Source of the DNA: Candidatus Latescibacterota bacterium
GTDB lineage: Bacteria; Latescibacterota; UBA2968
Assembly (NCBI GenBank): GCA_965208125.1
Contig: OZ242320.1
Location: 3,424,001 to 3,488,000, forward strand
Length of the DNA: 64,000 nt
Reading direction: 5' to 3'
The notes below the pieces were generated by a model, which saw only the letters and a program-made list of their open reading frames with translations, was not told where the DNA came from and ran no database searches. Of the stretch, positions 30,652 to 44,414 are shown piece after piece (the first letter of the stretch is position 1; each line of letters opens with the position of its first letter). The position numbers were made by a program, and so were the translations under genes.

Positions 30652-30791
30652 GGGTAAAAAACGGGGTGATGCCTCTGTGCTCGTCCATTGAAGTGGTGGG
30701 GTTCTTTGGCGATTGACATTATATCAGGGGCGTTCTAATTTAGGCAGGGCGTTTCGCAACTATGCAGCACTTTCTCAGAATGGGAGTTTTT

Positions 30792-31919
30792 ATGCTGAAT
30801 TTACACGGTGAAAAAATTGTTCGGATTGAAAAAGTGGTTATGAAATTTAAGCGTCCCCGCCTGATCGGGCGCAATGCGCGGATTGGTGTTCACGGGGATA
30901 TGGTGACGGATCCCGTGGTTCGCATTCATACAAGTAGCAGTGCTATTGGCGTTGGATGGTCGCGGTTAGGGCGGGAAGAAGCCGAGTCATTGGTGGGTAA
31001 AAGCATTGGGGATGTGTTTCAATTGCCGGGGGGATCAAACGACGCTGGAGCGGCGATTGACTTGCCTCTGTGGGATCTGGTAGCCAAATTATCGGATCAG
31101 CCGTTGTACAAACTTTTAGGTGCTCGGGGGGCTCGGGCAGTCGAGTTGTACGATGGTTCGGTTTATATCGACGACCTGGATGCCTCGGACGAGGAGGCGG
31201 TGGAGATATTTCGAGACGAAGTCAAGACGGGACACGATTACGGGTATAAAAATTTCAAAATTAAAATTGGTCGTGGCGCGCGCTGGATGCCCGTTACAGA
31301 AGGTACGGATCGGGATGTGCTGGTTATTCACATTGTTCGGGAAGCCGCTGGCGCAGATGCGAAGATACTCGTTGATGCAAATAATGGCACGACGCTCAAT
31401 ATTGCAAAAGACATTCTCGAGCGTTGTGAAGATGTGGGGATTTACTGGTTTGAAGAACCGTTTCCCGAAGATGGGGCTTTTAACGAAGATTTTAAGCAGT
31501 TCATCGTCGAAAAAGGATATGATACACTCGTCGCTGATGGGGAATCGGGGCCTCCGCCACCCAGTTATTTTGATATGGTCAAAAGGGGATGGATCGATGT
31601 GGTGCAACACGATTTTCGCGCCAAGGGTCTTACGTGGTGGCGTGAGACTGCGGCGATGATCGAGCCCTGGGGTGGCCAGTGTGCTCCTCATTGCTGGGGC
31701 AGTTTGATTGAGCGCTATGCCCACGCGCATTTTGCCGCTTCAGTTCCCCATTTTGCGCTTCAAGAAGCCGCTCCCGCAGATATGCCGGGCATTGTGCTGG
31801 ATGGCTGGACGATGCAGGATGGGTGTTTGATGGTGCCAGATACGCCGGGTACGGGTTTTGATCTCGAGGCAGATGTGATTGAAGAGGGGGTGAAGCGGGA
31901 AGATGGGTTCAGGGTGTAA
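30792..31919 (+). CDS. mandelate racemase/muconate lactonizing enzyme (enolase superfamily)
   Basis: 'DLPLWDL', KxK 'FKIKIG', 'VDAN', 'WFEEP', 'DGE', 'PGTG'. Confidence 0.9.
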   Translation: MLNLHGEKIVRIEKVVMKFKRPRLIGRNARIGVHGDMVTDPVVRIHTSSSAIGVGWSRLGREEAESLVGKSIGDVFQLPGGSNDAGAAIDLPLWDLVAKLSDQPLYKLLGARGARAVELYDGSVYIDDLDASDEEAVEIFRDEVKTGHDYGYKNFKIKIGRGARWMPVTEGTDRDVLVIHIVREAAGADAKILVDANNGTTLNIAKDILERCEDVGIYWFEEPFPEDGAFNEDFKQFIVEKGYDTLVADGESGPPPPSYFDMVKRGWIDVVQHDFRAKGLTWWRETAAMIEPWGGQCAPHCWGSLIERYAHAHFAASVPHFALQEAAPADMPGIVLDGWTMQDGCLMVPDTPGTGFDLEADVIEEGVKREDGFRV

Positions 31920-31932
31920 TGGAGATAATAAT

Positions 31933-32970
31933 ATGGATATGACATTTCCTGGAGCAGAATGGGAGACGAGACCGCCCGGTGACCTGGGCTTTGACGCGGA
32001 TAAACTCGCGCGGGTGCAGAGATGGTTGCGCGAGGTGGCGGGTGGTAGATCTTTTCAGGTGGGGATTGCGCGTTACGGGTATCTCGCGGCGGAGTGGCGG
32101 CAAGGTGTTGCGGCTGCTTCTTCGCACTCACAGGCTTCTGCGGCTAAGTCGTATTATTCGACGCTTTTGGGCATTGTGGTGGCGGGAGGCAAGTTGTCTT
32201 CGCCAGATGAAAGAGTCGTCGATTACTATCCTGAGATGATGGATGTGGGCGAGCAGGAGGGTCCAAAGCCCGGGCGGTATGCGTTTGAAAAAGATCGCTA
32301 TATTACGTTTCGGCATTTGATATGTAATGTGTCGGGCTATATGAAGCCGGGGGAAAAACCGGGGGAGGTTTTTCACTATCAGACTTATGGGATGAATATT
32401 CTGACCCACGCAATGGCTAAAATTTATGGGTGTTACGATGCAGATGATCCCGAGGGTTTGCCGGGGTGCGGGAAGGTGATAGAAGAAAAGTTGCGCGATC
32501 CCATTGGCGGGACCTGGACGCATTCGCATTCTAATTTTGATCTGTGGCCCAGTGCGCGGTTAAATATTTTCGGGTATTACACGCAGGTGCATACCACATT
32601 GCGCGACCAATTGAGGGTGGGACATTTGTGGGGCAACTACGGTAATTGGAATGGGGTTCAGGTTGCGCCGGAGAATTACTTGCGCGAGGCAACAGTGACG
32701 AATGATTTTCTTCTGAAAAACGAACCCGAAGAGAACTGGAAATACGGACACGGATTCTGGTGCAATGATCGCGGGATGCAGTGGGCAGATGCACCGAGGG
32801 ATTCTTTTGCTGCATCGGGTGCTGGTGCCAAACATGTCTGGATGTGCCCGCGGTTGGGGCTGGTTATCGCGCAAAATCCAGGGTTGTGGGATCAGTTCAG
32901 GGAAGAGCGGGATAAGGTCGGGAGCCAGAATGAGGTGATTGCGCGAGTTGTGAATGCGGTGAAGACTTAG
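31933..32970 (+). CDS. serine hydrolase, beta-lactamase-like
   Basis: SxxK 'SAAKS', 'PGEVFHY', 'YGHGFW', 'ASGAG'. Confidence 0.85.
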   Translation: MDMTFPGAEWETRPPGDLGFDADKLARVQRWLREVAGGRSFQVGIARYGYLAAEWRQGVAAASSHSQASAAKSYYSTLLGIVVAGGKLSSPDERVVDYYPEMMDVGEQEGPKPGRYAFEKDRYITFRHLICNVSGYMKPGEKPGEVFHYQTYGMNILTHAMAKIYGCYDADDPEGLPGCGKVIEEKLRDPIGGTWTHSHSNFDLWPSARLNIFGYYTQVHTTLRDQLRVGHLWGNYGNWNGVQVAPENYLREATVTNDFLLKNEPEENWKYGHGFWCNDRGMQWADAPRDSFAASGAGAKHVWMCPRLGLVIAQNPGLWDQFREERDKVGSQNEVIARVVNAVKT

Positions 32971-33081
32971 GAATTGCTTGCACTCTGCACTATCGCATCA
33001 TGTATCAATCACATTCAATGGGAGAGTGAGATTTCCGTAGAATAACTTGACACAAAACAACGCGAGGCTATTTTGGCTAAC

Positions 33082-33183
33082 ATGAAAACTACGATCACAC
33101 TTGATACAGATGTGGAGAAGGCAATGCACCGACAGGGCAAGAGCTTCCAGGAAAACTTAAATCACAGATCGTTCAGGCTGTGA
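33082..33183 (+). pseudogene. truncated RHH/VapB-type antitoxin remnant
   Basis: Manual translation MKTTITLDTDVEKAMHRQGKSFQENLNHRSFRL resembles 'MRTTxTLDxDV...SFK..VN' antitoxin N-termini; upstream TTGACA-16-TATTTT; no toxin follows. Confidence 0.55.
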
Positions 33184-33199
33184 AGAGGATATTTGCATT

Positions 33200-34774
33200 A
33201 TGCGCTTCTTCAATACTGCTGGTCCCATCAAGCCCGAAAGGCACTACTGCATCCTGCCTCTGGAACGCTTAAATATGGACGAGGTGCTCGCACTCATCCG
33301 AGACGAGAAATACTTTGTCTTGCACGCGCCTCGGCAGACGGGCAAGACTTCTGCTTTGCTGGCATTGCGCGACCTGCTCAACGCTCAGGACACCTATCGC
33401 TGTGTGTACGTCAACGTTGAAGGTGGACAGGCCGCGCGCGAAGATGTGGAACTGGTGATGCGCACCTTTTTGGGTGAGTTGGCATCTCGGGCGCGTTCAG
33501 TAGGTGACGAATTTTTGGACGAGATCTGGTTCGACATCCTGGCGAAATACGGGCCTCACACTGCACTGCGCGAGGCGTTGATGCGCTGGGCACAGGCTGC
33601 TCCGAAGCCATTGGTGTTGCTCATTGACGAGATCGATTCTCTGATTGGCGATTCTCTGCTGTCCGTGTTGCGGCAGTTGCGGGCTGGCTATGACCGTCGC
33701 CCGGAGGGTTTTCCGCAAAGTGTGGTGCTGTGTGGGGTGCGCGATGTGCGCGATTACCGCATCCAATCAACGGCAGAGAATGCGATTATTGCCGGTGGCA
33801 GTGCGTTTAATATCAGAGCGCGATCTTTGCGCCTGGGCGACTTCTCGCGTGACGAGGTGCTCGCCCTGCTCAACCAGCATACGGATGAGACAGGACAGGT
33901 GTTCACTCCTGCTGCGTTGGAACTGATCTGGAGACAGACCCAGGGGCAGCCGTGGCTGGTCAACGCGCTGGCGGAAGAAACCTGTTTCTATGGCGAAGCC
34001 GCAGAGGACCGGGGTATCTCGATTACTGCCGACGCCATCCGCGACGCTCGTGAGCAACTCATCCTGCGCCGGGAGATACACCTCGACCAACTCGCCGACA
34101 AGTTGCAGGAGAAGCGCGTGCAGCGCGTGATTGAACCGCTGCTGAGTGGTGGAGAGGACAGCGACTTCTCCACTCGCGATCTCGAATATGTCCGCGACCT
34201 GGGTTTGATCGCATCCGAAGATCCACTCCGTATTGCCAATCCGATCTATGCAGAAGTCGTCCCGCGCGAATTGACCTACGCAGCCCAGGTCGGGATCAAT
34301 GAGGACACAGAATGGTATGTCAATGCCGATGGCAGTTTGAATGTGGTGAAATTAATGACCGCGTTTCAGACCTTTTTCCGCGAGCACTCAGAGCATTGGG
34401 TGACGCGGTTTCAATATCAGGAGGCAGGGCCGCAGTTGCTGTTGCAGGCATTTCTGCCGCGCATTGTGAACAGTGGCGGACGCATTGAACGGGAGTATGG
34501 TCTGGGGCGAATGCGTACGGATTTGCTGATCGTCTGGCCGCAGGGTGATCAGACGCGCAAGATTGTGATTGAGTGTAAATTGCTCCACAAGAGTCTGGAC
34601 CAGACCATTGCCGATGGCCTGGATCAGACCGCCGAGTACATGGATCGGTGCGATGCAGAGGCGGGTCATCTGGTGGTTTTTGACCGCCGTGATGGGAGAC
34701 GTTGGGCGGACAAAGTATTCCACGATCGCCGGACATCAAGCAGTGGGGTCGAGATTGAGGTGTGGGGGATGTGA
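33200..34774 (+). CDS. AAA ATPase with C-terminal PD-(D/E)XK nuclease-like domain
   Basis: 'FFNTAGP', Walker A 'APRQTGKT', Walker B 'LLIDEID', C-terminal 'EREY...RTDL...IECK'. Confidence 0.85.
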   Translation: MRFFNTAGPIKPERHYCILPLERLNMDEVLALIRDEKYFVLHAPRQTGKTSALLALRDLLNAQDTYRCVYVNVEGGQAAREDVELVMRTFLGELASRARSVGDEFLDEIWFDILAKYGPHTALREALMRWAQAAPKPLVLLIDEIDSLIGDSLLSVLRQLRAGYDRRPEGFPQSVVLCGVRDVRDYRIQSTAENAIIAGGSAFNIRARSLRLGDFSRDEVLALLNQHTDETGQVFTPAALELIWRQTQGQPWLVNALAEETCFYGEAAEDRGISITADAIRDAREQLILRREIHLDQLADKLQEKRVQRVIEPLLSGGEDSDFSTRDLEYVRDLGLIASEDPLRIANPIYAEVVPRELTYAAQVGINEDTEWYVNADGSLNVVKLMTAFQTFFREHSEHWVTRFQYQEAGPQLLLQAFLPRIVNSGGRIEREYGLGRMRTDLLIVWPQGDQTRKIVIECKLLHKSLDQTIADGLDQTAEYMDRCDAEAGHLVVFDRRDGRRWADKVFHDRRTSSSGVEIEVWGM

Positions 34775-34845
34775 GGCATTCCCGCACATTATCCATTTAC
34801 TGATGTTACGCCGTTTATCTACAATGGGCTGTCATTAGAGAGAGG

Positions 34846-36174
34846 ATGAAAATGGATGCAAAAACCAAAAAGTTGCAGGTGGATCAGGCTGTGAAATCGC
34901 AGTCGCGACGGGCGTTTAAGCTGTCGCGGAGTATTCACGGCTGGGCAGAGCGGCCGTTTCAGGAATACGAGTCGTCAAAGGCGTTGGCGGCGTATTTGGA
35001 GGAGAACGGATTTCAAATTGAATTTCCGTTTAAAAAGATCCCGACGGCTTTTCGCGCCACATGGGGCACGGGCAAACCCATTATTGGCATGTTGGGGGAG
35101 TACGACGCATTGCCCAATTGCGGTGCCGAGGAGGGTACCTGGGGGCACGGCTGAGGTCATAATCTTTTGGGCGTTGCCCCGGCCGCAGGTGCGGTTGCTG
35201 CAAAAACAGTGTTGGAAAATTTGAAGTCGCCCGGTCAGATTATTTACTACGGCTGTCCGGCTGAAGAGACGCTGGCGGGCAAGGTGTATATGGCCCGCGA
35301 TGGTGCGTTTCGAGATCTGGATGCGGTGCTGGCATGGCATCCGGGATCGAGTACGGGTGTTAGTAATTATGGTGGTTCGTCGCTGGATTCGCTGGTGTAT
35401 GAGTTTTTTGGCAAGACGTCTCACGGCGCGAGTGCTCACAATGGGCGCAGTGCATTGGACGGGGTGATGTTGATGGATGTTGCGGCGAATTATTTGCGCG
35501 AGCATGTTCCCGAAAATGTGCGTATCCATTGTGTGATCCGTGACGGTGGGGATGCGCCCAATGTGGTGCCGGCTTATGCGAAGGTGTGGTACTATGTGCG
35601 TGGGAAGGATCGTGAACAGGTGAATAAAGTACGCAAGCGATTGACTAAGTGCGCCAAAGGTGCGGCGATGGCTACGGAAACAACTATGAAATGGCATCGT
35701 ATCACGGCTGTGTACCCGCGTTTGCCAAATGATGTGATGTGCGAAACTGTGCGCAAAAATCTCGAATTATTCGGTCCACCTCGTGCGTCAAAAAAAGATA
35801 AGGAACGCGTAAAGGAATTGGGATACAAAGGTGAATTTGACGGGAAGATCAAAAAGGGGAAGGGGTCGCAGGGGCGTGGGTCTTCGGATGAAGATAATGT
35901 GTCGTGGCTGGCACCGATGGGGCGGTTTCAGATGGTGTGTTATACCAAGGGCACGCCGGGCCATCACCGCGATATGACCGCACAGGCGATCATGCCTTAT
36001 GCCGAGCGCGCGGTTTTGCAAACGGCCAAGGTGTTTGCGGGATCGGCTATTGATCTGATTTTGGACAAAAAGGTGTTGCAAGCAGCGCGTGCGGAATTTA
36101 AGAAGGGAACGAAGGGGTTTGAGTACGATCCGTTGATTCCGAAACGCCAGAAGGTTCCCGTGGATCCTCCATAG
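34846..36174 (+). CDS. M20D/AbgB-like amidohydrolase with in-frame TGA (35152-35154) at the conserved Cys; candidate selenoprotein
   Basis: ORFs 34846-35154 and 35167-36174 share a frame: GEYDAL...GHG-[TGA]-GHNLLG, then GCPAEE, AWHP, GRSALD, 'GSSD'; joined length 442 aa. Confidence 0.85.
35165..35205 (+). promoter_or_regulatory. putative bacterial SECIS element
   Basis: Apical stem GGCCGC/GCGGTT with loop AGGT (35187-35190), 32 nt downstream of the TGA; outer TTTTG/CAAAA pairing. Confidence 0.55.
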
Positions 36175-36180
36175 AAGGAG

Positions 36181-37179
36181 ATGGTCGTGAAAGCACAACG
36201 ATTAATATGCACAGATGTCCGGCGGATTGAATTAGAGGATTTTGAACTGCTGCGTGTGCCAGATAATGGCATTTTGGTGCAGAATGATTATACCGCTGTG
36301 AGTGTGGGTACGGAAATTTACAATTATGCACATGGGGGTGAACCGTCGCGTGCGAGAACATTTCCGCGGCCAACGGGGTATTGCAATACGGGTGTGGTGC
36401 TCGAGGTGGGCAAAGATGTGAAGGGGATAGAACCAGGTGATCGTATTGCCGCGCAGGGCAATCACGCCAGTCATGCGGTCATGAGCGGGAATTTTTTTAG
36501 AGTGCCCGAAGGTGTTTCGCCCAGGTCCGCGGCTTTTATGGTTATGTGTGCTATTGCCATGCACGGGCACCGGGTTGGGCGTCCGGAATTGGGTGAGGTT
36601 GTTGCAATTACCGGTATGGGTATTGTAGGCCAGTTGGCAGCGACCTTTGCGCGATTGGCCGGTGCGCTCCCGGTTATTGCGATTGATCTGGATGTTTTTC
36701 GGTTGGGTAAAGCGAGAGACAGGGGCGCAGATGTTTGTGTCAATCCCAATAATGCAGGGGATGTCGCCGAAGTGGTGCGCGAGCATTGCGTGGGCGATGG
36801 TGTCGATCTGGTTATTGAAGCGACGGGTATTCCGGCGGTTTATCCCATGGCGTTGACTTTGCCGCGGTTGGGAGGGCGTCTGGTCGCTTTGGGGTCTCCT
36901 CGCGGTACCGTGGAGGTTAGTTTTTTGCCCGAGGTTCATTTGCGCGAGATCACAATTCTGGGCGCGCATCAGCCCAAGACGCCGGATAATGACCATATTT
37001 ATTATCCGTGGAGTAAGCACAGAGATCGCGAACTAATTTTGCGTTTGATGGCTGCGGGCAAGTTGCCCATCGAAGATTTGATTACCCATGTTGTCAATCC
37101 CGCCGATTGCCAGGCTACCTACGATATGCTCGCCGATAATCCGAGAGAAGTGTTGGGCGTGGTATTTGAGTGGAGGTGA
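36181..37179 (+). CDS. MDR-family (zinc-binding type) alcohol dehydrogenase
   Basis: 'SVGTE', 'GYCNTG', 'GMGIVG', 'IEATG', 'LITH'. Confidence 0.88.
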   Translation: MVVKAQRLICTDVRRIELEDFELLRVPDNGILVQNDYTAVSVGTEIYNYAHGGEPSRARTFPRPTGYCNTGVVLEVGKDVKGIEPGDRIAAQGNHASHAVMSGNFFRVPEGVSPRSAAFMVMCAIAMHGHRVGRPELGEVVAITGMGIVGQLAATFARLAGALPVIAIDLDVFRLGKARDRGADVCVNPNNAGDVAEVVREHCVGDGVDLVIEATGIPAVYPMALTLPRLGGRLVALGSPRGTVEVSFLPEVHLREITILGAHQPKTPDNDHIYYPWSKHRDRELILRLMAAGKLPIEDLITHVVNPADCQATYDMLADNPREVLGVVFEWR

Positions 37180-37229
37180 TCTCGCCTGCTGAAATAAAAT
37201 CCCTGTCAGAACCATAGAGGAGATCGAAT

Positions 37230-38201
37230 ATGAGACGCCACTCTTTTGGAAGTCGTGCTGTAGTAAAGGTTTTCGGATTCTATCTTCTTTTGTTTTTCTC
37301 GTTTTCCGTCTTTGCTAATATCAGAAAAGTTTTCGCACAACAAGTCTCACAAAGCAGAGGTTTGGCTTCACAGATGTCAGAGATAGCAACCATTAAAAAT
37401 TACAAGTACGGCCCCCATGAGCGGAACGTATTTGATTTTTATCCGGCACAATCGGACGAACCCACCCCTGTTGCAGTGTATATTCACGGCGGCGGTTTCA
37501 GAAACGGCAGCAAGGATGGGATTGGTAATAAGACATTGAAAGCTTTATTAGATGCGGGCATTTCTGTCGCGGCTTTTAACTATCGCTATGTCCAGCAGGC
37601 TCCTTTGCCTGCTGCGCACTACGATTGTCGGCGAGCGCTTCAGCTTCTGCGTTCCAAAGCCACCGAATGGAACATCGATAAAAATCGGATCGGTGCATTT
37701 GGCGGATCGGCTGGGGCACAAATTTGCATGTATCTTGCTTTTCACGAAGACATGGCCCGTCCAGACAGCGATGATCCAATCGAACGCGAATCTACCAGAC
37801 TTCAGGCCGTGGCCACATCTGGCGGTCAGACCACGATGGACGTTGCCTGGTGGAAGAAGAATATTCCCGGGTACGACGAGTCCCATCGAGATTTTTATCA
37901 GACATTAGGCGCAACGACCCAGGAAGAATATCAGAATCGCGTAAGCGAGATTTCGGCGCTTGATTTGGTATCAAAGGACGACCCCGCTATTTATATGAGC
38001 TATAGAATGTCACCGAAAGATCCTGTGCCAGAAGGACAGACTGCTCGTGGTTGGAAAGTGCATCACGTGCAGTTTGGTGTTGCTTTACAAGAAAAAATGA
38101 CAGCGCTTGGTATAGAATCTGATCTGGTTTATCCAGGTTCAAAAAATAAATATCAAAGCAATGTTGACTACTTTATCTCAATGTTAAAAAATAGGAAATA
38201 G
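37230..38201 (+). CDS. secreted alpha/beta hydrolase (esterase)
   Basis: N-terminal hydrophobic signal; HGGGF; GGSAG nucleophile elbow. Confidence 0.88.
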   Translation: MRRHSFGSRAVVKVFGFYLLLFFSFSVFANIRKVFAQQVSQSRGLASQMSEIATIKNYKYGPHERNVFDFYPAQSDEPTPVAVYIHGGGFRNGSKDGIGNKTLKALLDAGISVAAFNYRYVQQAPLPAAHYDCRRALQLLRSKATEWNIDKNRIGAFGGSAGAQICMYLAFHEDMARPDSDDPIERESTRLQAVATSGGQTTMDVAWWKKNIPGYDESHRDFYQTLGATTQEEYQNRVSEISALDLVSKDDPAIYMSYRMSPKDPVPEGQTARGWKVHHVQFGVALQEKMTALGIESDLVYPGSKNKYQSNVDYFISMLKNRK

Positions 38202-38315
38202 ACGGGTTTGAGACACCAGTTTGGAGCTTTTTTCTTTGACAAGTTACTTTTGGGGCGCAATTATAGAGGTGCATAAATGCAGACCTACTGTTCAAAATAT
38301 TTTACGAGGTGATTG

Positions 38316-38813
38316 ATGGCTTTCAAGACTACTGATTTGTGCGATGAGCACGAAACCGATCCAGCACTTCAAGTTGCCGAACCGATATTCAATGACTATG
38401 GCGGCGTGATGGCATTTTGCGGTCCGATTGCCACGGTCAAAGTTTGCGAAGACAATGTGCTGGTGCGCGAGATCCTCGAAACCCCGGGCGAGGGGCGCGT
38501 TCTCGTCGTCGATGGCGAGGGCTCGATGTGGTGTGCGCTGTTGGGGGATATGGTCGCTGAAATCGCCAGTGACAATGGCTGGTCGGGGATTGTCATAAAT
38601 GGCGGTGTGCGCGATGTGTCTGAACTTGCACAAATTGGAATAGGCGTCAAAGCACGCTTTGCTGTGCCGCGCCGCAGCCGAAAAGAAGGCAAGGGCCGCC
38701 AAAATACGCCTCTTGCTTTTGCCGGTGTCGCCTTTCTTCCGGGCGATTATCTCTACGCCGATGAAGACGGTATTTTGATTGCTACGAGAGATTTGTTAGA
38801 CGCGCAGGATTGA
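38316..38813 (+). CDS. rraA: RraA-like protein / HMG aldolase
   Basis: 'TTDLCD', 'EDNVLV', 'VLVVDG', 'ALLGD', 'GGVRD', 'YADEDG'. Confidence 0.92.
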   Translation: MAFKTTDLCDEHETDPALQVAEPIFNDYGGVMAFCGPIATVKVCEDNVLVREILETPGEGRVLVVDGEGSMWCALLGDMVAEIASDNGWSGIVINGGVRDVSELAQIGIGVKARFAVPRRSRKEGKGRQNTPLAFAGVAFLPGDYLYADEDGILIATRDLLDAQD

Positions 38814-38847
38814 CCTGCAATACAACCTTACACTATGGAGACAAAAT

Positions 38848-40215
38848 ATGCCGCAGACGGATCGGCCCAATATTCTCTTTATTATGGACGACCAGCATCG
38901 TTTTGATTACATGGGCTGTGCAGGTGCTGATTTTGTTCGCACACCCAATATTGACCGCCTGGCAAAGCAGGGGGTGCATTTTACCCAATGCACGACGAAT
39001 TGCCCTGTTTGCGCGCCTTCGCGCATTGCACTGGCTTCTGGCATGCAGCCCTCGCGCCTCGGTTGCGTTGGGAACAATTGCTTCTTGCCTCGCAGCCAAC
39101 CGACTTATTACCAGCAATTGCGCGATTATAATTATTATGTGGGTTGTGTGGGCAAGCTCGATCTGGCCAAACCCGACGGATACAATGGACGCGATGGCGA
39201 CAGGCCAGCTACGTATATGTGGGGCTTTACTCATCCGGTCGAATGCGAGGGCAAAATGCACGCTGGGCATTCCAAAACACCACAGGGCCCTTATAACCAC
39301 TTTTTGGAGGAAAGAGGGTTGCTCGGTGCTTTTGTCGATGATTATACCCGTCGCTCCAAAGAGGGTTATCACGCTTCCTGTCACGATTCGGTCTTACCTA
39401 CCGAAGCTTTTGAGGATGTGTATATTGGGCAGCGATCTGTCGAGTGGATTGAGAATATCCCCGGGGATTTTCCCTGGCATTTATTTGTGAGCTTTGTGGG
39501 ACCTCACGATCCTTTTGATCCGCCAGCCGAATACGGAGAGAAGTACCGCGATGCAGAGATGCCACCCGCCACGCCTGCTAATTTGCCGGGTAAACCCGCT
39601 TACTTAAAAGATCGCATCAAAGACATGACCCCGGAAAAAATTGCAGAGACCCGACGGCAATATTGCGCGGCAATTGAAGTTATTGACGATCAGATCGGCG
39701 AGATGCTCGCGGCAGTGGAACGGCGGGGGATGGCCGATAATACGTATGTTATCTTTTCCAGTGATCACGGAGAAATGCTGGGCGATCACGGTTTGTACAC
39801 CAAAAGTGTGCCTTACGAAGCATCGGTACATGTTCCGCTCATTGTTGCGGGGCCTGGGATTGAAGGCGGTCGCGTCTCAGATGCTCTCGTTGAACTCATT
39901 GACATGAATCCAACGATATGTGATCTTGCTGGCGTGCCTCCGCTTTCGGATATCGATGCGCGATCAATTGGCGCGGTGCTTCGCGGAGAGGCAGAGGAAC
40001 ACCGCACGGAAACCGTGAGTGGCATACAAAATTTCAGGTGTATCCGTACGCGGGAGTACAAATTGGTGGAGAACTACAACGATGTTACGGAACTCTACGA
40101 TCTGATCGCTGATCCTGCAGAAGAACACAATATTGCCGAACAAGAGCCAGAGGTACGGCGCGAATTGTCTCGCCGTCTCTCAGCGCGTTATTTAGAAGGC
40201 ACATGGTATCGGTAG
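38848..40215 (+). CDS. sulfatase
   Basis: 'PNILFIMDDQHR', CxPxR 'CAPSR', 'SDHGEMLGDHG'. Confidence 0.95.
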   Translation: MPQTDRPNILFIMDDQHRFDYMGCAGADFVRTPNIDRLAKQGVHFTQCTTNCPVCAPSRIALASGMQPSRLGCVGNNCFLPRSQPTYYQQLRDYNYYVGCVGKLDLAKPDGYNGRDGDRPATYMWGFTHPVECEGKMHAGHSKTPQGPYNHFLEERGLLGAFVDDYTRRSKEGYHASCHDSVLPTEAFEDVYIGQRSVEWIENIPGDFPWHLFVSFVGPHDPFDPPAEYGEKYRDAEMPPATPANLPGKPAYLKDRIKDMTPEKIAETRRQYCAAIEVIDDQIGEMLAAVERRGMADNTYVIFSSDHGEMLGDHGLYTKSVPYEASVHVPLIVAGPGIEGGRVSDALVELIDMNPTICDLAGVPPLSDIDARSIGAVLRGEAEEHRTETVSGIQNFRCIRTREYKLVENYNDVTELYDLIADPAEEHNIAEQEPEVRRELSRRLSARYLEGTWYR

Positions 40216-40224
40216 GAGGGAATC

Positions 40225-41208
40225 GTGAAATACACCAAACTGCCCGGTACGGATATCGATGTCTCTGTTATTGCTCTGGGCTGCTGGCCTTTTGCTGGTG
40301 GTGATGTTTGGGGTGAGCAAGACGACGATGTGTCTATCGCCACGGTGCATGCTGCGCTTGATGCGGGTATCACTTTTTTTGATACGGCAGAAGGGTATGG
40401 CAAGTCCGAGCGCGTGCTTGGGGAAGGTCTCAAAGGTCGTCGGCAAGACGCGGTGATCGCCACCAAAGTTGGCGGCGGTCATCTTTCGTCCGATGATTTG
40501 CCCAGAGCCTGCGAACAGAGCTTGAAAAGTCTGCAAACAGATTATATCGATTTGTACCAGATTCATTGGCCCAATCACAATATTCCCATCGCAGAAACAG
40601 CAAGCGCACTTCAACGTCTCCGCGATCAGGGAAAAATTCGGGCTATTGGCGTTTGTAATTTTGCCTGCGGCGATTTGCGCGACCTGCTCGCTGTTGCCGA
40701 TATTGTCACCAATCAGTTGTCCTTTAGCTTGCTCTGGCGCGTTATTGAACGCGAGATTCAGCCGATGTGTTTGGAAAACAATATTGGCATTATCTGTTAT
40801 AGCCCGCTGATGCAGGGGTTGCTTACCGGACGTTATGCCTCTGCGGATGATGTGCCAGATGGTCTGGCGCGAACCCGCCTGTTTTCGAATGACCGCCCCA
40901 GGGCCAGACACGGTGAAGAAGGCTGTGAGGCCGAAGTGTTTGACGCGCTGGAAAAAGTTCGCGATGTTGCCGATGAAGCAGGCGTTGCAATGGCAGAGAT
41001 TGCCCTTGCCTGGGCACTACAACAACCCGGTATTACATCGCTTCTGGTGGGCGCGAGAAATCCCGATGAAGTGCAATGGAATCTCCCTTCGGTTGATCTC
41101 GCATTGTCAGAAGATATATTGCAACGCTTATCTGAAATTACAGAAGGTGTTAAAGACAAACTCGGCAATAATCCCGATATGTGGATGTCGGAGTCGAGGA
41201 TGAGGTAG
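40225..41208 (+). CDS. aldo/keto reductase
   Basis: 'FDTAEGYG', 'ATK', 'DLYQIHWP', 'YSPLMQGLL'. Confidence 0.95.
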   Translation: MKYTKLPGTDIDVSVIALGCWPFAGGDVWGEQDDDVSIATVHAALDAGITFFDTAEGYGKSERVLGEGLKGRRQDAVIATKVGGGHLSSDDLPRACEQSLKSLQTDYIDLYQIHWPNHNIPIAETASALQRLRDQGKIRAIGVCNFACGDLRDLLAVADIVTNQLSFSLLWRVIEREIQPMCLENNIGIICYSPLMQGLLTGRYASADDVPDGLARTRLFSNDRPRARHGEEGCEAEVFDALEKVRDVADEAGVAMAEIALAWALQQPGITSLLVGARNPDEVQWNLPSVDLALSEDILQRLSEITEGVKDKLGNNPDMWMSESRMR

Positions 41209-41283
41209 TTTTGCGAAACAAATTTTACTCGTATTTGTCTCATTTTTTAGATACGCTACGTTAGAAAAGATCAGGAGGCTCTC

Positions 41284-41631
41284 ATGGCTCATCTTCAGAT
41301 TGACGACCCAGAAACATTTTTTCGCACCTTTGCAGATCTTTTAGCTGCTGGTGAAGACGACAAACACATGGCCCGAAAATTGGGGTGCTCGCGGGGCGAA
41401 AGCAAGCGCAGGCGACAGGCATTTCAAAAAGGGGGTATTGTGACGGGAAAAGGCGTATCTAAAGAAAAATTGGATGCGTGGCTGTCTTCAAGTGACGGCC
41501 AGCGCGCACAACGCCAGTGGGAAGGCCATCACAAGCGTCAACAGGCTATGGGGGCAACGGGTACCAAACCGCAAAAGGGTTTTCGCAGACAGCCCGAAGT
41601 CAAGCGCGGTTGGATGCGGCAAAAGATTTGA
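41284..41631 (+). CDS. small basic hypothetical protein with possible HTH
   Basis: AGGAGG RBS; 'DKHMARKLGCSRGESKRRR'; followed by a terminator. Confidence 0.7.
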   Translation: MAHLQIDDPETFFRTFADLLAAGEDDKHMARKLGCSRGESKRRRQAFQKGGIVTGKGVSKEKLDAWLSSSDGQRAQRQWEGHHKRQQAMGATGTKPQKGFRRQPEVKRGWMRQKI

Positions 41632-41650
41632 GGTATTACAATATCAGTTT

Positions 41651-41686
41651 AAAAAAAGGCCGATGGGCAATGTTCCATCGGCTTTT
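41651..41686. terminator. bidirectional intrinsic terminator
   Basis: A7-GCCGATGG-loop-CCATCGGC-T4 between convergent genes. Confidence 0.8.
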
Positions 41687-41702
41687 AATATTTTTATATC
41701 TC

Positions 41703-42677
41703 TCACCGCTCGTCGCGTTTCAAGTCCAGCCAATCGAGTTCTTCCTGTGTGAGTTTCAAATTGAGAGCCTCGATATTGGCCTTGCACTCATCGGGATGGA
41801 ACACGCCGATTAATGAGAAGAGATTCAGGGGCTGGTTCAGGTTGAATGCCAGCGCGATTTGTGGCACGGTCAGCCCTTTTTCTTTTGCCAGTTCGCCCGC
41901 GCGGTCCAGGCGTTTAAAATTTTGTTCGTAACAATAGGCTTCGACGCAAGAGCCAGGCAGATTTGCTTTGTAGTCTGCAAAAGTTTCGCGCGTAAATCTG
42001 CCAGAGAAAAATCCCTGCGCGAGACTCGACCAGGTAAACAGGGGCATGTTTTGTTCTGTGTACCACACGCGGTCTGCCTCGTTGTCAGGCCCACTGATGC
42101 TGATACAACCTCTCCAGGGTTCTTTCACCTGTTCTGCAAGGCTGTAATTGGGGCTGCTCACGGTAAATGGTTCAAGGTTGTGCTTATATGCGTATTCATT
42201 GGCTTCTTGTATGCGCGGCACGGTCCAGTTCGATCCGCCAAATAGTCCGATTCGACCCGCTGCTTTGTGTTCGTTTAGTATCTCTACTATTGGCCCAACT
42301 TCGACATTGAGATCATCGCGGTGCAATACGTAGATGTCGATAAAATTCGTTCGGCAACGCTCCAATGAAGTGGTTAGATCGGCTGTAATGTCAACAGGCG
42401 TTACTTTGTTTTTGTTCCCAGTGTGGTGTGCCCCTTTGGTCAAGATGACGGCTTCTTCGAACAGGCCTCGTTCGTCGAGCCATTGGCCCAGAACACGCTC
42501 ACACTGACCGCCGCCGTAAATATATGCCCCGTCAAAGCCGTTGACGCCGAGTGCCCATACGCCGTCTAACAGGTCAAATGATTCTTGCAGGTGATCTTCG
42601 CGCAACATCATTGTCCCTTGTAAAATGCGCGAAATTTTTTTGTTCATTCCTTCAATTGTGCCGTATTCCATTGGCAT
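41703..42677 (-). CDS. aldo/keto reductase
   Basis: 'DGAYIYG', 'LTKG', 'IDIYVLHRD', 'GGSNW', 'WSSLAQG'. Confidence 0.93.
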   Translation of the reverse strand: MPMEYGTIEGMNKKISRILQGTMMLREDHLQESFDLLDGVWALGVNGFDGAYIYGGGQCERVLGQWLDERGLFEEAVILTKGAHHTGNKNKVTPVDITADLTTSLERCRTNFIDIYVLHRDDLNVEVGPIVEILNEHKAAGRIGLFGGSNWTVPRIQEANEYAYKHNLEPFTVSSPNYSLAEQVKEPWRGCISISGPDNEADRVWYTEQNMPLFTWSSLAQGFFSGRFTRETFADYKANLPGSCVEAYCYEQNFKRLDRAGELAKEKGLTVPQIALAFNLNQPLNLFSLIGVFHPDECKANIEALNLKLTQEELDWLDLKRDER

Positions 42678-42681
42678 GATA

Positions 42682-43668
42682 TTATGTCCTTTCCATCGGA
42701 TATTTCAATCCCCATTGCTCTCGAATTGCGTCCAGGGTCTGCATATTGGCAAGCGTATCGCCGTGTGACATGAGATCGCTTTCCAGCTTGCCCGCGCGCA
42801 CGCAACGGGCCACCTCGGCGGCTTCACATTCGTATCCATTTCCAGCGCATTCCAGTGTTACCACTTCCTCTTTGTCGCCAGCGGAGAGGATAGCGGTGCG
42901 TCCATCCCAAAACTTCGGTACTGTGATCATGCCGTCTGTGCCCAAAATTTTCGCTTCGTGTGGTGTTTTGATTCGCACGCCACAGGAGATCAATGCGAGT
43001 TGTCCTTTGTCGTAGCCAAATACCATCGCTGCCTGTTCATCTACGCCAGTTTCGCCGATATGCGCCTGGCTCGAGATGGTGGCAGGTTGGGTGTCGAAGA
43101 TCAGGGATGCATAAGAGATGGGGTAGATACCTATATCGAGCAGGCCACCTCCACCGAGTGCGAGATCGAACAAGCGACCTTCGGGATTAAGGTTGGCGCG
43201 AAATCCAAAATCGGCGTATAACATCCGCACTTCGCCAATTGCGCCGTCTGTGACCCACGCTTTTACCTGTTTGGTGATGGGCAAAAATCGGGTCCACATG
43301 GCTTCCATCAAAAACACGCCTTCGCTGCGGGCGACTTCGATAACTTCTCTGGCTTCGTGTTGGTTGATTGTAAATGGTTTTTCGCACAACACGGGCTTGC
43401 CCGCTTTCAGGCATAAGATACTGTTCTCTTTGTGAAAGGGATGGGGTGTTGCCACATAAACCGCATCGACTTCTGGATCTTCGGCGAGTGCTTCATAAGA
43501 GGCGTGGCGATTGGGTACATCATACGTATCGGCAAAGGCGTCGGCGCGATCCTGACTGCGCGATCCCACGGCGACGACTTGTGCATCGTCGAGGGCGCGC
43601 AATCCCGTGGCGAACTTGTGTGCAATACTGCCGGGACCGATAATGCCCCAGCGGAAAATATCACCCAT
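42682..43668 (-). CDS. Gfo/Idh/MocA family oxidoreductase
   Basis: Start placed at MGDIFRWGIIGPGSIA (AAGGA RBS); 'VYVATPH', 'LCEKP', 'GGGLLDIGIY'. Confidence 0.93.
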   Translation of the reverse strand: MGDIFRWGIIGPGSIAHKFATGLRALDDAQVVAVGSRSQDRADAFADTYDVPNRHASYEALAEDPEVDAVYVATPHPFHKENSILCLKAGKPVLCEKPFTINQHEAREVIEVARSEGVFLMEAMWTRFLPITKQVKAWVTDGAIGEVRMLYADFGFRANLNPEGRLFDLALGGGGLLDIGIYPISYASLIFDTQPATISSQAHIGETGVDEQAAMVFGYDKGQLALISCGVRIKTPHEAKILGTDGMITVPKFWDGRTAILSAGDKEEVVTLECAGNGYECEAAEVARCVRAGKLESDLMSHGDTLANMQTLDAIREQWGLKYPMERT

Positions 43669-43685
43669 TGTTGATCCTTTTCTTA

Positions 43686-44414
43686 TCAGGAGGTTAAAAA
43701 TAGAAAATGCAAAATCATGCGTAAGGCGAGCAGTGTTACCAGCCACCTTAAAAGGACGCGAAAATGGTGCTCGGGCACATGCCCGCGAATCAGGGTTCCC
43801 AGATAAGACCCAAGCGATGCCGAGGCGATCATGCCAACGACCAATTTCCAATAGGGTGCAAAGGCAAATCCCAAAAATCCAAATGTCAAAATTTTCATCG
43901 CATGGCTCGATGCCATCTGAACCGAATGCGTGATTACCGTGCGGTCTCGGGGCAGGTTTTCTCGCAGGAGAAATGGCATATTGAGCGGACCACTTACACC
44001 CAAAAACAAGGATAAAGCAGTTTGAAAAGCACCCAGAAGTGTGAATTTTGCGGGTAAATCGGGCGCGCGGGAAAATTTGGGCATCCACGTGATGAGCAAA
44101 ATAAAAATACCCAAAAAGAGGGGCAGGAGTTCCCATTTAAAATCGATAATAAAACGAGAACCCAATGCGGCGCCAATCACTGTTCCGATCGCGTATTGCC
44201 CCACAAGACGCCATTCGGTATGCTTGAGGCCAATGAACGCGCGGCTCAAATTGCTGGCAATTTGCACCAGTCCGTGAATCGGGATAATCGCCGCAGCGGG
44301 GAGGAAGCCCGGCATAATCGCAATGAGGACAACGCCGCCGCCAACGCCGCCAACAGCCGCGATCATCGATGTTATACACGCCGCCCCAATTAAAAACCAA
44401 TCCGCTGTCTCCAT
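43686..44414 (-). CDS. TauE/SafE (sulfite exporter) family membrane protein
   Basis: 'GGVGGGV', 'HGLVQIASN', 'GVSGP'; ~8 TM segments. Confidence 0.85.
   Translation of the reverse strand: METADWFLIGAACITSMIAAVGGVGGGVVLIAIMPGFLPAAAIIPIHGLVQIASNLSRAFIGLKHTEWRLVGQYAIGTVIGAALGSRFIIDFKWELLPLFLGIFILLITWMPKFSRAPDLPAKFTLLGAFQTALSLFLGVSGPLNMPFLLRENLPRDRTVITHSVQMASSHAMKILTFGFLGFAFAPYWKLVVGMIASASLGSYLGTLIRGHVPEHHFRVLLRWLVTLLALRMILHFLFLTS

Follow-up and report, generated by a model that had tools for sequence, protein, structure and literature searches.

An in-frame TGA codon at the predicted metal-bridging position of an M20D amidohydrolase gene of Candidatus Latescibacterota: a probable selenoprotein with a candidate downstream recoding element

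A reading frame interrupted by a single TGA codon

The DNA analysed here, referred to as the window, is a stretch of 64,000 nucleotides (nt) from a Candidatus Latescibacterota bacterium (contig OZ242320.1 of assembly GCA_965208125.1, positions 3,424,001 to 3,488,000 of the forward strand), and coordinates are those of the window unless stated otherwise. On its plus strand, positions 34846-36174 carry an M20D-type amidohydrolase gene, which is very probably a selenoprotein gene as judged from its single-TGA frame, its matches to TIGR01891 and PF07687, and the fold of its AlphaFold2 (AF2) model. This region constitutes a single frame of 442 codons, whose sole interruption is the TGA at 35152-35154 in the context GHG-TGA-GHN-LL. 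Since relatives have TGA at the same column, this in-frame codon is taken to be read as selenocysteine (Sec), corresponding to U103 when residues are counted from the first ATG at 34846, as is done throughout, or to U101 if translation begins at 34852. The read-through product contains the GEYDAL, CPAEE, WHP and GRSALD motifs, and no lesion other than the TGA was seen in it. Translation with table 11 splits the gene into two open reading frames (ORFs), 34846-35154 (102 amino acids) and 35167-36174 (335 amino acids). Thus, the original prediction of one 442-codon frame broken only by a TGA, with four intact motifs and liable to be split by standard annotation, holds at each of these coordinates, and C-terminal pieces of such proteins are indeed present in databases.

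The extent of this frame needs one amendment. Its 442 codons are counted from the first ATG, but translation probably begins at the second ATG (34852), which gives a protein of 440 amino acids with Sec at residue 101. Such a start is suggested because most of the full-length homologues begin at reference residue 3. It is further suggested by seven genomes of the genus, in which a TAG is counted inside a match beginning at residue 2 and the open frame is 440 amino acids long, and by contigs of relatives, which part from the window sequence just before 34852.

Family, fold and predicted metal site

The read-through protein matches TIGR01891 with 198.4 bits (cut-off 153.75), which places it in the M20D family, and PF07687, the M20 dimerisation domain, with 31.5 bits (cut-off 21). 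Its AF2 model, built on 33 homologues, has a mean predicted local distance difference test (pLDDT) score of 93.4 and is predicted to adopt the two-domain fold with a catalytic and a dimerisation domain. Human PM20D2 and Staphylococcus aureus HmrA are the top Foldseek matches of this model (for 3RAM, TM 0.82/0.92 and a root-mean-square deviation of 2.1 A), followed by 6SLF, 4EWT, 1YSJ, 3IO1 and 1XMB, and sequence searches agree. The gene product is hence predicted from its sequence to be a full-length M20D metal-dependent amidohydrolase or dipeptidase, and by family its substrate class would be an N-acyl-amino acid or a dipeptide.

In 6SLF, as described in the available text of PMC7209930, the sulfur of Cys-105 ligates both zincs, with His-107, Glu-141, His-168 and His-370 as further ligands, and the consulted part of the review PMC11511702 agrees on the metal-ligand role of this Cys. 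U103, H105, E140/E141, H165 and H373 of the read-through protein all fall on invariant columns with spacing as in the 6SLF ligand set, and in alignments to HmrA and PM20D2 the GHACGHN of these proteins falls on GHG-U-GHN. The dimetal ligand set (Cys-x-His, Glu, His, His) is therefore present with the Cys itself replaced by the TGA-encoded residue, and the earlier proposal that the TGA lies where a Cys bridges the two catalytic metals agrees with what this part of PMC7209930 describes for M20D. By homology, Sec is predicted to bridge the two metals, which would be of the zinc/manganese type.

Compared with the M20D enzymes HmrA (3RAM), PM20D2 (7YH4, 8XZC), the N-acyl-glutamine aminoacylase 6SLF, ILL2 (1XMB) and YxeP (1YSJ), the protein shares the TIGR01891 match, the two-domain fold, the GH[GA]-C/U-GH motif and the Glu/His/His ligands at matching spacing. 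It differs from them by an identity of only about 27% to the nearest solved structure and by having the bridging Cys replaced by a TGA-encoded residue. The gene had been labelled earlier as M20/AbgB, of which the M20 part stands and can be narrowed to M20D, but AbgB turns out to be merely an automatic annotation. AbgB, the p-aminobenzoyl-glutamate hydrolase subunit B, belongs to the same M20 superfamily, and several homologues are called 'aminobenzoyl-glutamate utilization protein B' by JGI. However, the AbgB-like 3IO1 is the weakest of eight PDB sequence matches (E 1.2e-08), behind HmrA and PM20D2. An identity as AbgB was rejected, as 3IO1 is the weakest match and the neighbouring genes encode unrelated catabolic enzymes; no AbgA-like or transporter gene is adjacent to the locus, a statement limited to these neighbours as no whole-genome search for AbgA was made.

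Conservation of the TGA codon and its pairing with Cys

When the read-through protein was searched against 168 genomes of the phylum, with matches counted at E <= 1e-60, 73 genomes had a match, and in 55 of these exactly one TGA was found inside it, at protein identities of 71-100%. The 55 genomes span three families, designated f1 (31 genomes, including the source genome), f2 (18) and f3 (6). At the DNA level, the TGA of all 55 is always in the GHG-x-GHN column, and the neighbouring Gly, His and Asn codons vary synonymously. The closest homologue in the phylum without a stop, in genome G059 (68% identity), has TGC at this column, as do the more distant ones without a stop (36-47%). Of the 120 best-matching database proteins, 102 cover the full length, and every one of them has Cys at the column (57-83% identity); the remaining 18 start only at reference positions 107-149, as would be expected of split gene calls. 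Sec-form and Cys-form relatives are up to 83% identical, and an in-frame UGA aligned with Cys in homologues is a hallmark of bacterial selenoproteins.

A similar distribution is observed outside this genome set. The 80 loci listed from contigs with one genome per species comprise 74 Cys forms (13 of them recognised only with a looser pattern) and six TGA forms, all of which have at least 73% identity and none of which is among the distant hits labelled as other phyla. From a separate listing of 80 metagenome loci, the 17 close ones examined yielded four TGA and 13 Cys forms. Counting TGA against Cys codons at this position, as had been proposed as a check, hence gives TGA in 55 of 168 phylum genomes and in four metagenome contigs, with TGC/TGT or Cys in all other homologues examined.

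Ordinarily, a single in-frame stop would point to a pseudogene or to a sequencing or assembly error. An identical TGA is, however, found in the 55 genomes and four metagenome contigs, which stem from many assemblies, and this diversity of origin speaks against an artefact of one shared pipeline. Contigs from other runs, belonging to relatives 90-99% alike, also cover the TGA, with no difference at 35152-35154 among the rows listed. Two RNA libraries likewise yielded contigs that span the TGA (X15 record 5 and X16 record 7), although such libraries may contain DNA; these contigs carry no evidence on expression level, and gaps in their cover carry no meaning. With no other lesion and with the selection pattern described below, a pseudogene or error is refuted by the comparative data, and its probability is negligible.

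Two side observations concern the distribution of the gene. One TGA-form genome (G041, locus L079) is labelled Gemmatimonadota by NCBI, and genome grouping places it in the order of the source genome, so that label and grouping conflict. In G119 and G123, both of the same phylum, a TGA form occurs in the same genome with a distant paralogue lacking a stop (36-37% identity).

Selection and translation across the TGA

Pairwise ratios of nonsynonymous to synonymous substitution rates (dN/dS), taken from pairs with estimable dS since dS is saturated for more distant ones, are 0.07-0.15 upstream and 0.06-0.13 downstream of the TGA. Selection is thus purifying on both sides without any relaxation past the TGA, and conservation of a UGA among orthologues from several species, combined with such two-sided selection, is a further hallmark of selenoprotein genes. 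The range of 0.06-0.15 over both sides also argues against a pseudogene.

Codons 104-107 (G-H-N-L; 35155-35166 on the plus strand) separate the TGA from the earliest codon at which translation could restart. In 49 aligned TGA forms their residues are invariant and their codons vary, with all four Gly codons in use, CAT in 28 and CAC in 21, and AAT in 21 and AAC in 28. Invariance as residues with freedom as codons means that this stretch is translated in frame with the upstream part, and this pattern excludes a split gene as well as a pseudogene. In a conserved split gene, the TGA would be a real stop and two polypeptides, of 102 and approximately 335 amino acids with a restart near 35167, would assemble into the enzyme. 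Standard gene callers yield exactly these two pieces, and the 18 C-terminal pieces among the 120 best database hits include one that NCBI names as a separate protein, 'peptidase dimerization domain-containing protein'. Nevertheless, codons 104-107 would then stay untranslated, yet their residues are invariant while their codons vary. Such an arrangement would also lose the metal-ligating residue and part H101 from H105, and the stop is always found at the Cys column. A split gene is therefore considered highly improbable.

As a separate observation, the codon directly before the TGA, codon 102 (35149-35151), is almost always GGC (48 of the 49 aligned TGA forms), although the codon choice at other Gly residues is free. 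Two f3 genomes carry GGG here. This preference might reflect an influence of codon context on Sec insertion or on termination.

Sec machinery and genetic code of the source genome

The source genome is a single contig of 5.75 Mb with 96% completeness, and all four components of the bacterial Sec system, whose presence had been set as a check, are encoded in it. tRNA-Sec scores 70.1 bits to RF01852 and is called SeC with anticodon tca by ARAGORN. The adjacent selA and selB genes score 577.8 and 396.2 bits, respectively, and selD scores 364.8 bits, has its own in-frame TGA and adjoins tRNA-Sec. This selD gene lies outside the window, at G000:C1:1005357-1006482, directly beside tRNA-Sec, with its TGA in the context SCGG-U-ASK.

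A genome-wide reassignment of TGA to a sense codon, in favour of which there is nothing except the open frame itself, is refuted by the use of TGA in this genome. TGA closes 1353 of 3221 long frames and is the commonest stop, above TAA and TAG. Among the 49 tRNAs, the only tca anticodon belongs to tRNA-Sec, with cca on tRNA-Trp and gca on tRNA-Cys. The chance that TGA has been reassigned is accordingly minute.

A candidate SECIS element downstream of the TGA

A hairpin just downstream of the TGA had been part of the original prediction, and it is present as proposed: a 7-bp stem at 35180-35197 on the plus strand with the loop AGGU at 35187-35190, whose start lies 32 nt beyond the end of the TGA. 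By the criteria for bacterial selenocysteine insertion sequences (bSECIS) and by comparative data, it is the candidate apical hairpin of such an element (SECIS). The conserved RNA element is nevertheless larger than this hairpin, since its 5' part contains an additional small hairpin with a 4-bp stem and a 3-nt loop (35169-35179, plus strand). No change in the stem of this small hairpin occurs among the 41 distinct sequences of alignment A1, and its loop varies (GUU, GUA or ACA), because of which it is probably not a SelB contact. Minimum free energies (MFE) are -4.6 kcal/mol for 35169-35179, -9.4 kcal/mol for 35180-35197 and -15.1 kcal/mol for both together. According to the available text of PMC13188914, a bSECIS has a loop of 3-9 nt, a stem of 4-16 bp and a G in the first two loop positions, and lies 16-37 nt from the UGA with MFE <= -7.5 kcal/mol. 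The hairpin at 35180-35197 agrees with all of these, having a 4-nt loop, 7 bp, a G at loop position 2, which is itself followed by a G, a distance of 32 nt and an MFE of -9.4 kcal/mol. Pairing in this hairpin reaches 99.7% over the 41 distinct sequences; one stem pair occurs as GC in 26, GU in 11, AU in three and another combination in one sequence, and another as CG in 26 and UG in 15.

Constraint on synonymous sites links this element to the TGA. Out of 167 conserved columns with four-fold or higher degeneracy, only nine have a codon entropy below 0.45, and eight of these nine are in codons 102-116; the most synonymously constrained eight-codon window of the gene starts at codon 109. In a comparison of 58 Sec and 156 Cys distinct loci over the eight codons located 15-41 nt past the TGA, positions with the same residue as the window also keep its codon in 428 of 439 cases in Sec forms versus 187 of 563 in Cys forms. 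Even when Cys forms share at least six of the eight residues, the same codon is used in only 10 of 39 cases. Likewise, where the peptide encoded by the 27-nt element is identical, three Cys forms match 23, 19 and 19 of the 27 nt versus 26-27 of 27 in four metagenomic TGA forms. The synonymous-site freeze is thus specific to TGA forms and ties the RNA element to the TGA; the hairpin persists in every TGA-bearing homologue, and in the Cys homologues it has decayed.

A point of comparison is provided by selD of the same genome, whose TGA is followed by a hairpin with a 7-bp stem, a GGU loop and a C-G closing pair, 20 nt from the UGA. The loop motif and the closing pair of the hairpin at 35180-35197 resemble those of this selD hairpin. 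Two genome-wide scans for a TGA plus a hairpin, with 227 and 32 candidates, were too noisy to derive a SECIS consensus and were discarded, and the coding-potential filter of the 32-candidate scan missed selD. The comparators used are selD and two UxxC candidates.

Coupling to selA and evolutionary history

A selA gene was found in 131 of the 168 phylum genomes and in 54 of the 55 genomes with a TGA form. G059, which has the close Cys form, and its genus gave no selA match (0 of 2). In a FastTree phylogeny of 225 rows, consisting of 56 Sec (55 genomes, one of them represented twice) and 169 Cys rows, all Sec rows fall within a single clade of 74 tips, where 18 Cys rows are interspersed among their four groups. 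This tree needs four changes between Sec and Cys, and its strongly supported branches force at least three. All four Sec groups carry the same downstream element, which suggests one gain of Sec from Cys followed by several reversions to Cys. In the proposed history, a Cys ancestor in a single class of Candidatus Latescibacterota would have given rise to the Sec form on one occasion, and this form would have reverted to Cys several times, including in the genus without a selA match. Such a single gain with later reversions is the most likely course, its direction being drawn from the shared element.

Decoding as Sec and its SelB-independent alternative

The UGA at 35152-35154 is thus with high probability decoded as Sec by the canonical Sec system, in an M20D enzyme at the predicted metal-bridging position and with a candidate SECIS downstream. 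Such decoding was put forward in the original prediction and is supported by the Sec machinery, the conserved TGA and its pairing with Cys, the two-sided selection, the TGA-tied RNA constraint and the coupling to selA, all of which are observed together with the family and the fold. In the proposed mechanism, SelA, SelB, tRNA-Sec and SelD would act on this UGA with an in-frame mRNA element 15-46 nt downstream of it as the SECIS, and the 7-bp hairpin with its GGU-containing loop would be the likely SelB-binding part. The selenol would then sit where M20D enzymes have the conserved Cys that binds both co-catalytic metals through its sulfur, and the predicted active site would be a selenolate-bridged dimetal centre formed with U103, H105, E140/E141, H165 and H373.

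Several findings weigh against this assignment. Its basis is comparative, and the insertion of selenium into the protein is what we infer from it. The genomes compared are kin within one phylum, so that their counts do not represent independent events, and the changes between Sec and Cys on the tree are few (about four). One TGA-form genome, G012, yielded no selA, being a metagenome-assembled genome (MAG) of approximately 430 contigs with 91% completeness. Correspondence with the 6SLF residues is drawn from the spacing of the motifs together with the HmrA and PM20D2 alignments. At the RNA level, the folding energy of a 64-nt stretch is unremarkable relative to shuffles (z = +0.61) and was not used as evidence. 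Covariation is thin, with a single pair changing on both sides and 45 of 500 shuffles reaching the same score, because the element barely varies. The hairpin also lies farther from the UGA (32 nt) than do those of selD and of two further candidates in the genome (17-20 nt). Finally, RNAalifold prefers another fold, in which the UGA is inside a long stem. In this fold, every change is a one-sided C/U opposite G, and a base change before the TGA in two f3 genomes breaks a pair. It was set aside, since its apical loop lies too close to the UGA (10 nt, against 16-37 nt for a bSECIS), since it leaves the frozen sites at 35187-35199 unexplained, and since the two f3 genomes break one of its pairs. 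As the actual structure it is less likely than the two-hairpin element.

Some of the same findings could be accommodated by a SelB-independent read-through, in which a near-cognate tRNA (Cys, Trp or Arg) or Cys carried on tRNA-Sec would decode the UGA, with the hairpin as a stimulator and a selenium-free product. The comparative basis of the Sec assignment leaves room for it, as do the element spacing, longer than at selD, and a covariation too thin to prove a SelB-type structure. On the other hand, the TGA form is tied to selA (54 of 55 genomes), and the lineage without a selA match has TGC. The resemblance of the loop motif and closing pair to the selD hairpin and the agreement with all bSECIS criteria also point towards SelB. 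Moreover, a Cys codon is a simpler route to Cys, and several lineages made exactly that change. This kind of read-through is unlikely, and decoding of the UGA as Sec by the SelB-dependent route is strongly favoured.

Relation to known selenoproteins

Almost all known selenoproteins are oxidoreductases. The review PMC13188914 (May 2026) counts 119 prokaryotic selenoprotein families or subfamilies, including those annotated in GenBank, and its Table 1 of 119 families contains no M20, peptidase or amidohydrolase family. The literature surveyed for selenoprotein families comprised the main texts of this review and of the deep-Sep, GOS, 2016 comparative-genomics and Sargasso papers. The terms amidohydrolase, M20, peptidase, hydrolase and aminoacylase are absent from the main texts of PMC13188914, PMC12013277, PMC2398784 and PMC5029168, with their supplements outside this scope. 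In the main text of the Sargasso paper, PMC1088965, whose supplement is likewise outside it, 'hydrolase' occurs once, in an unrelated reference. Full-text literature searches gave no report of a Sec-containing M20 amidohydrolase, although supplementary tables might list one, and the matches in NCBIfam release 20.0 are generic M20 models without a selenoprotein-specific one. One paper combining the terms selenoprotein, M20 and amidohydrolase, PMC5658510, proved irrelevant, as its accessible part reports Sec genes as absent and, separately, a hippuricase.

While the recoding mechanism and the enzyme family are each ordinary, their combination is new. It would, somewhat more probably than otherwise, be the first selenium-bridged co-catalytic dimetal centre of a non-redox hydrolase, in a family missing from the inventories and with the Sec form long kept in three families of bacteria. 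The nearest known cases are FdhA, with Mo/W, and [NiFeSe] hydrogenase, with Ni, for which the roles of selenium are as given in the consulted part of PMC13188914. Shared with them are SelB/tRNA-Sec decoding, an in-frame SECIS, Cys homologues and selenium as a metal ligand, the last being predicted in the present case. In contrast to those redox enzymes, where selenium is a terminal ligand to a redox-active metal, the enzyme described here is hydrolytic and its selenium is predicted to be bridging.

If this assignment is true, a Sec bridging the hydrolytic dimetal centre of an M20 enzyme would widen the known uses of selenium and would bear on the old question of why Sec is used instead of Cys where a redox advantage is not obvious. 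In that case, a selenolate bridge would be expected to change metal preference or affinity, pKa or resistance to oxidation as compared with a thiolate. The close Sec and Cys forms and the repeated reversions would serve as natural matched pairs for studying kinetics, metal selectivity and oxidation resistance. The three families that keep the Sec form are Latescibacterota of largely marine-invertebrate-associated and marine origin. At the same time, public annotation systematically splits or truncates the gene, and hence selenoproteomes of Latescibacterota and M20 counts in sponge and marine metagenomes are mis-stated.

Neighbouring genes, habitat and other candidate selenoproteins

The amidohydrolase gene is followed, 7 nt after its stop, by a medium-chain (Zn-type) dehydrogenase/reductase-like gene (36181-37179, plus strand), all of whose NCBIfam matches are below cut-off (the best being TIGR00692, 96 bits). 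By tblastn, such a gene is present downstream in most of 29 Sec-form loci (L026-L054), directly so in genus g1 and further off or absent in some other loci, and it is probably co-transcribed with the amidohydrolase gene. Directly upstream, on the same strand, is an ORF of 524 amino acids (33200-34774) without an NCBIfam match, which some but not all genomes of the genus have at this position. Where it is missing, an ORF of 355 amino acids (31903-32970 in the window, also without an NCBIfam match) abuts the amidohydrolase gene, and this difference looks like an insertion or deletion. The wider region 30762-44136 contains genes for an enolase-superfamily sugar-acid dehydratase, a medium-chain dehydrogenase/reductase (MDR) family dehydrogenase, an alpha/beta-hydrolase esterase, two aldo-keto reductases and a Gfo/Idh/MocA oxidoreductase, as well as an arylsulfatase-like gene, with all matches below equivalog cut-offs. 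These catabolic neighbours, judged from NCBIfam matches below cut-off, point to no particular substrate.

The record titles of close relatives are those of Candidatus Latescibacterota MAGs. Runs with related sequence, with word shares up to 0.33, are labelled mainly as sponge metagenomes, together with one coral-reef and one marine metagenome; several of the runs bear coded organism names.

Outside the window, two further genes with an in-frame TGA were observed in the source genome. The first, at approximately G000:C1 640631-641998 on the plus strand (L247 82..1449), encodes a signal-peptide protein with a thioredoxin-like VGYN-U-GTC motif, Ig-like repeats and a dockerin-like tail; a GGU-loop hairpin is located approximately 18 nt downstream of its TGA, and it is a plausible further selenoprotein of the UxxC type. 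The second, at approximately G000:C1 857356-862431 on the minus strand (L248 57..5132), encodes a secreted protein of 1691 amino acids with IGYG-U-PTC at the in-frame TGA in its N-terminal part, followed by approximately 15 Ig-like repeats. A 7-bp hairpin with a GGU-containing loop is located 17 nt downstream of this TGA. The protein probably combines a thiol-disulfide oxidoreductase domain that contains Sec with a surface array.

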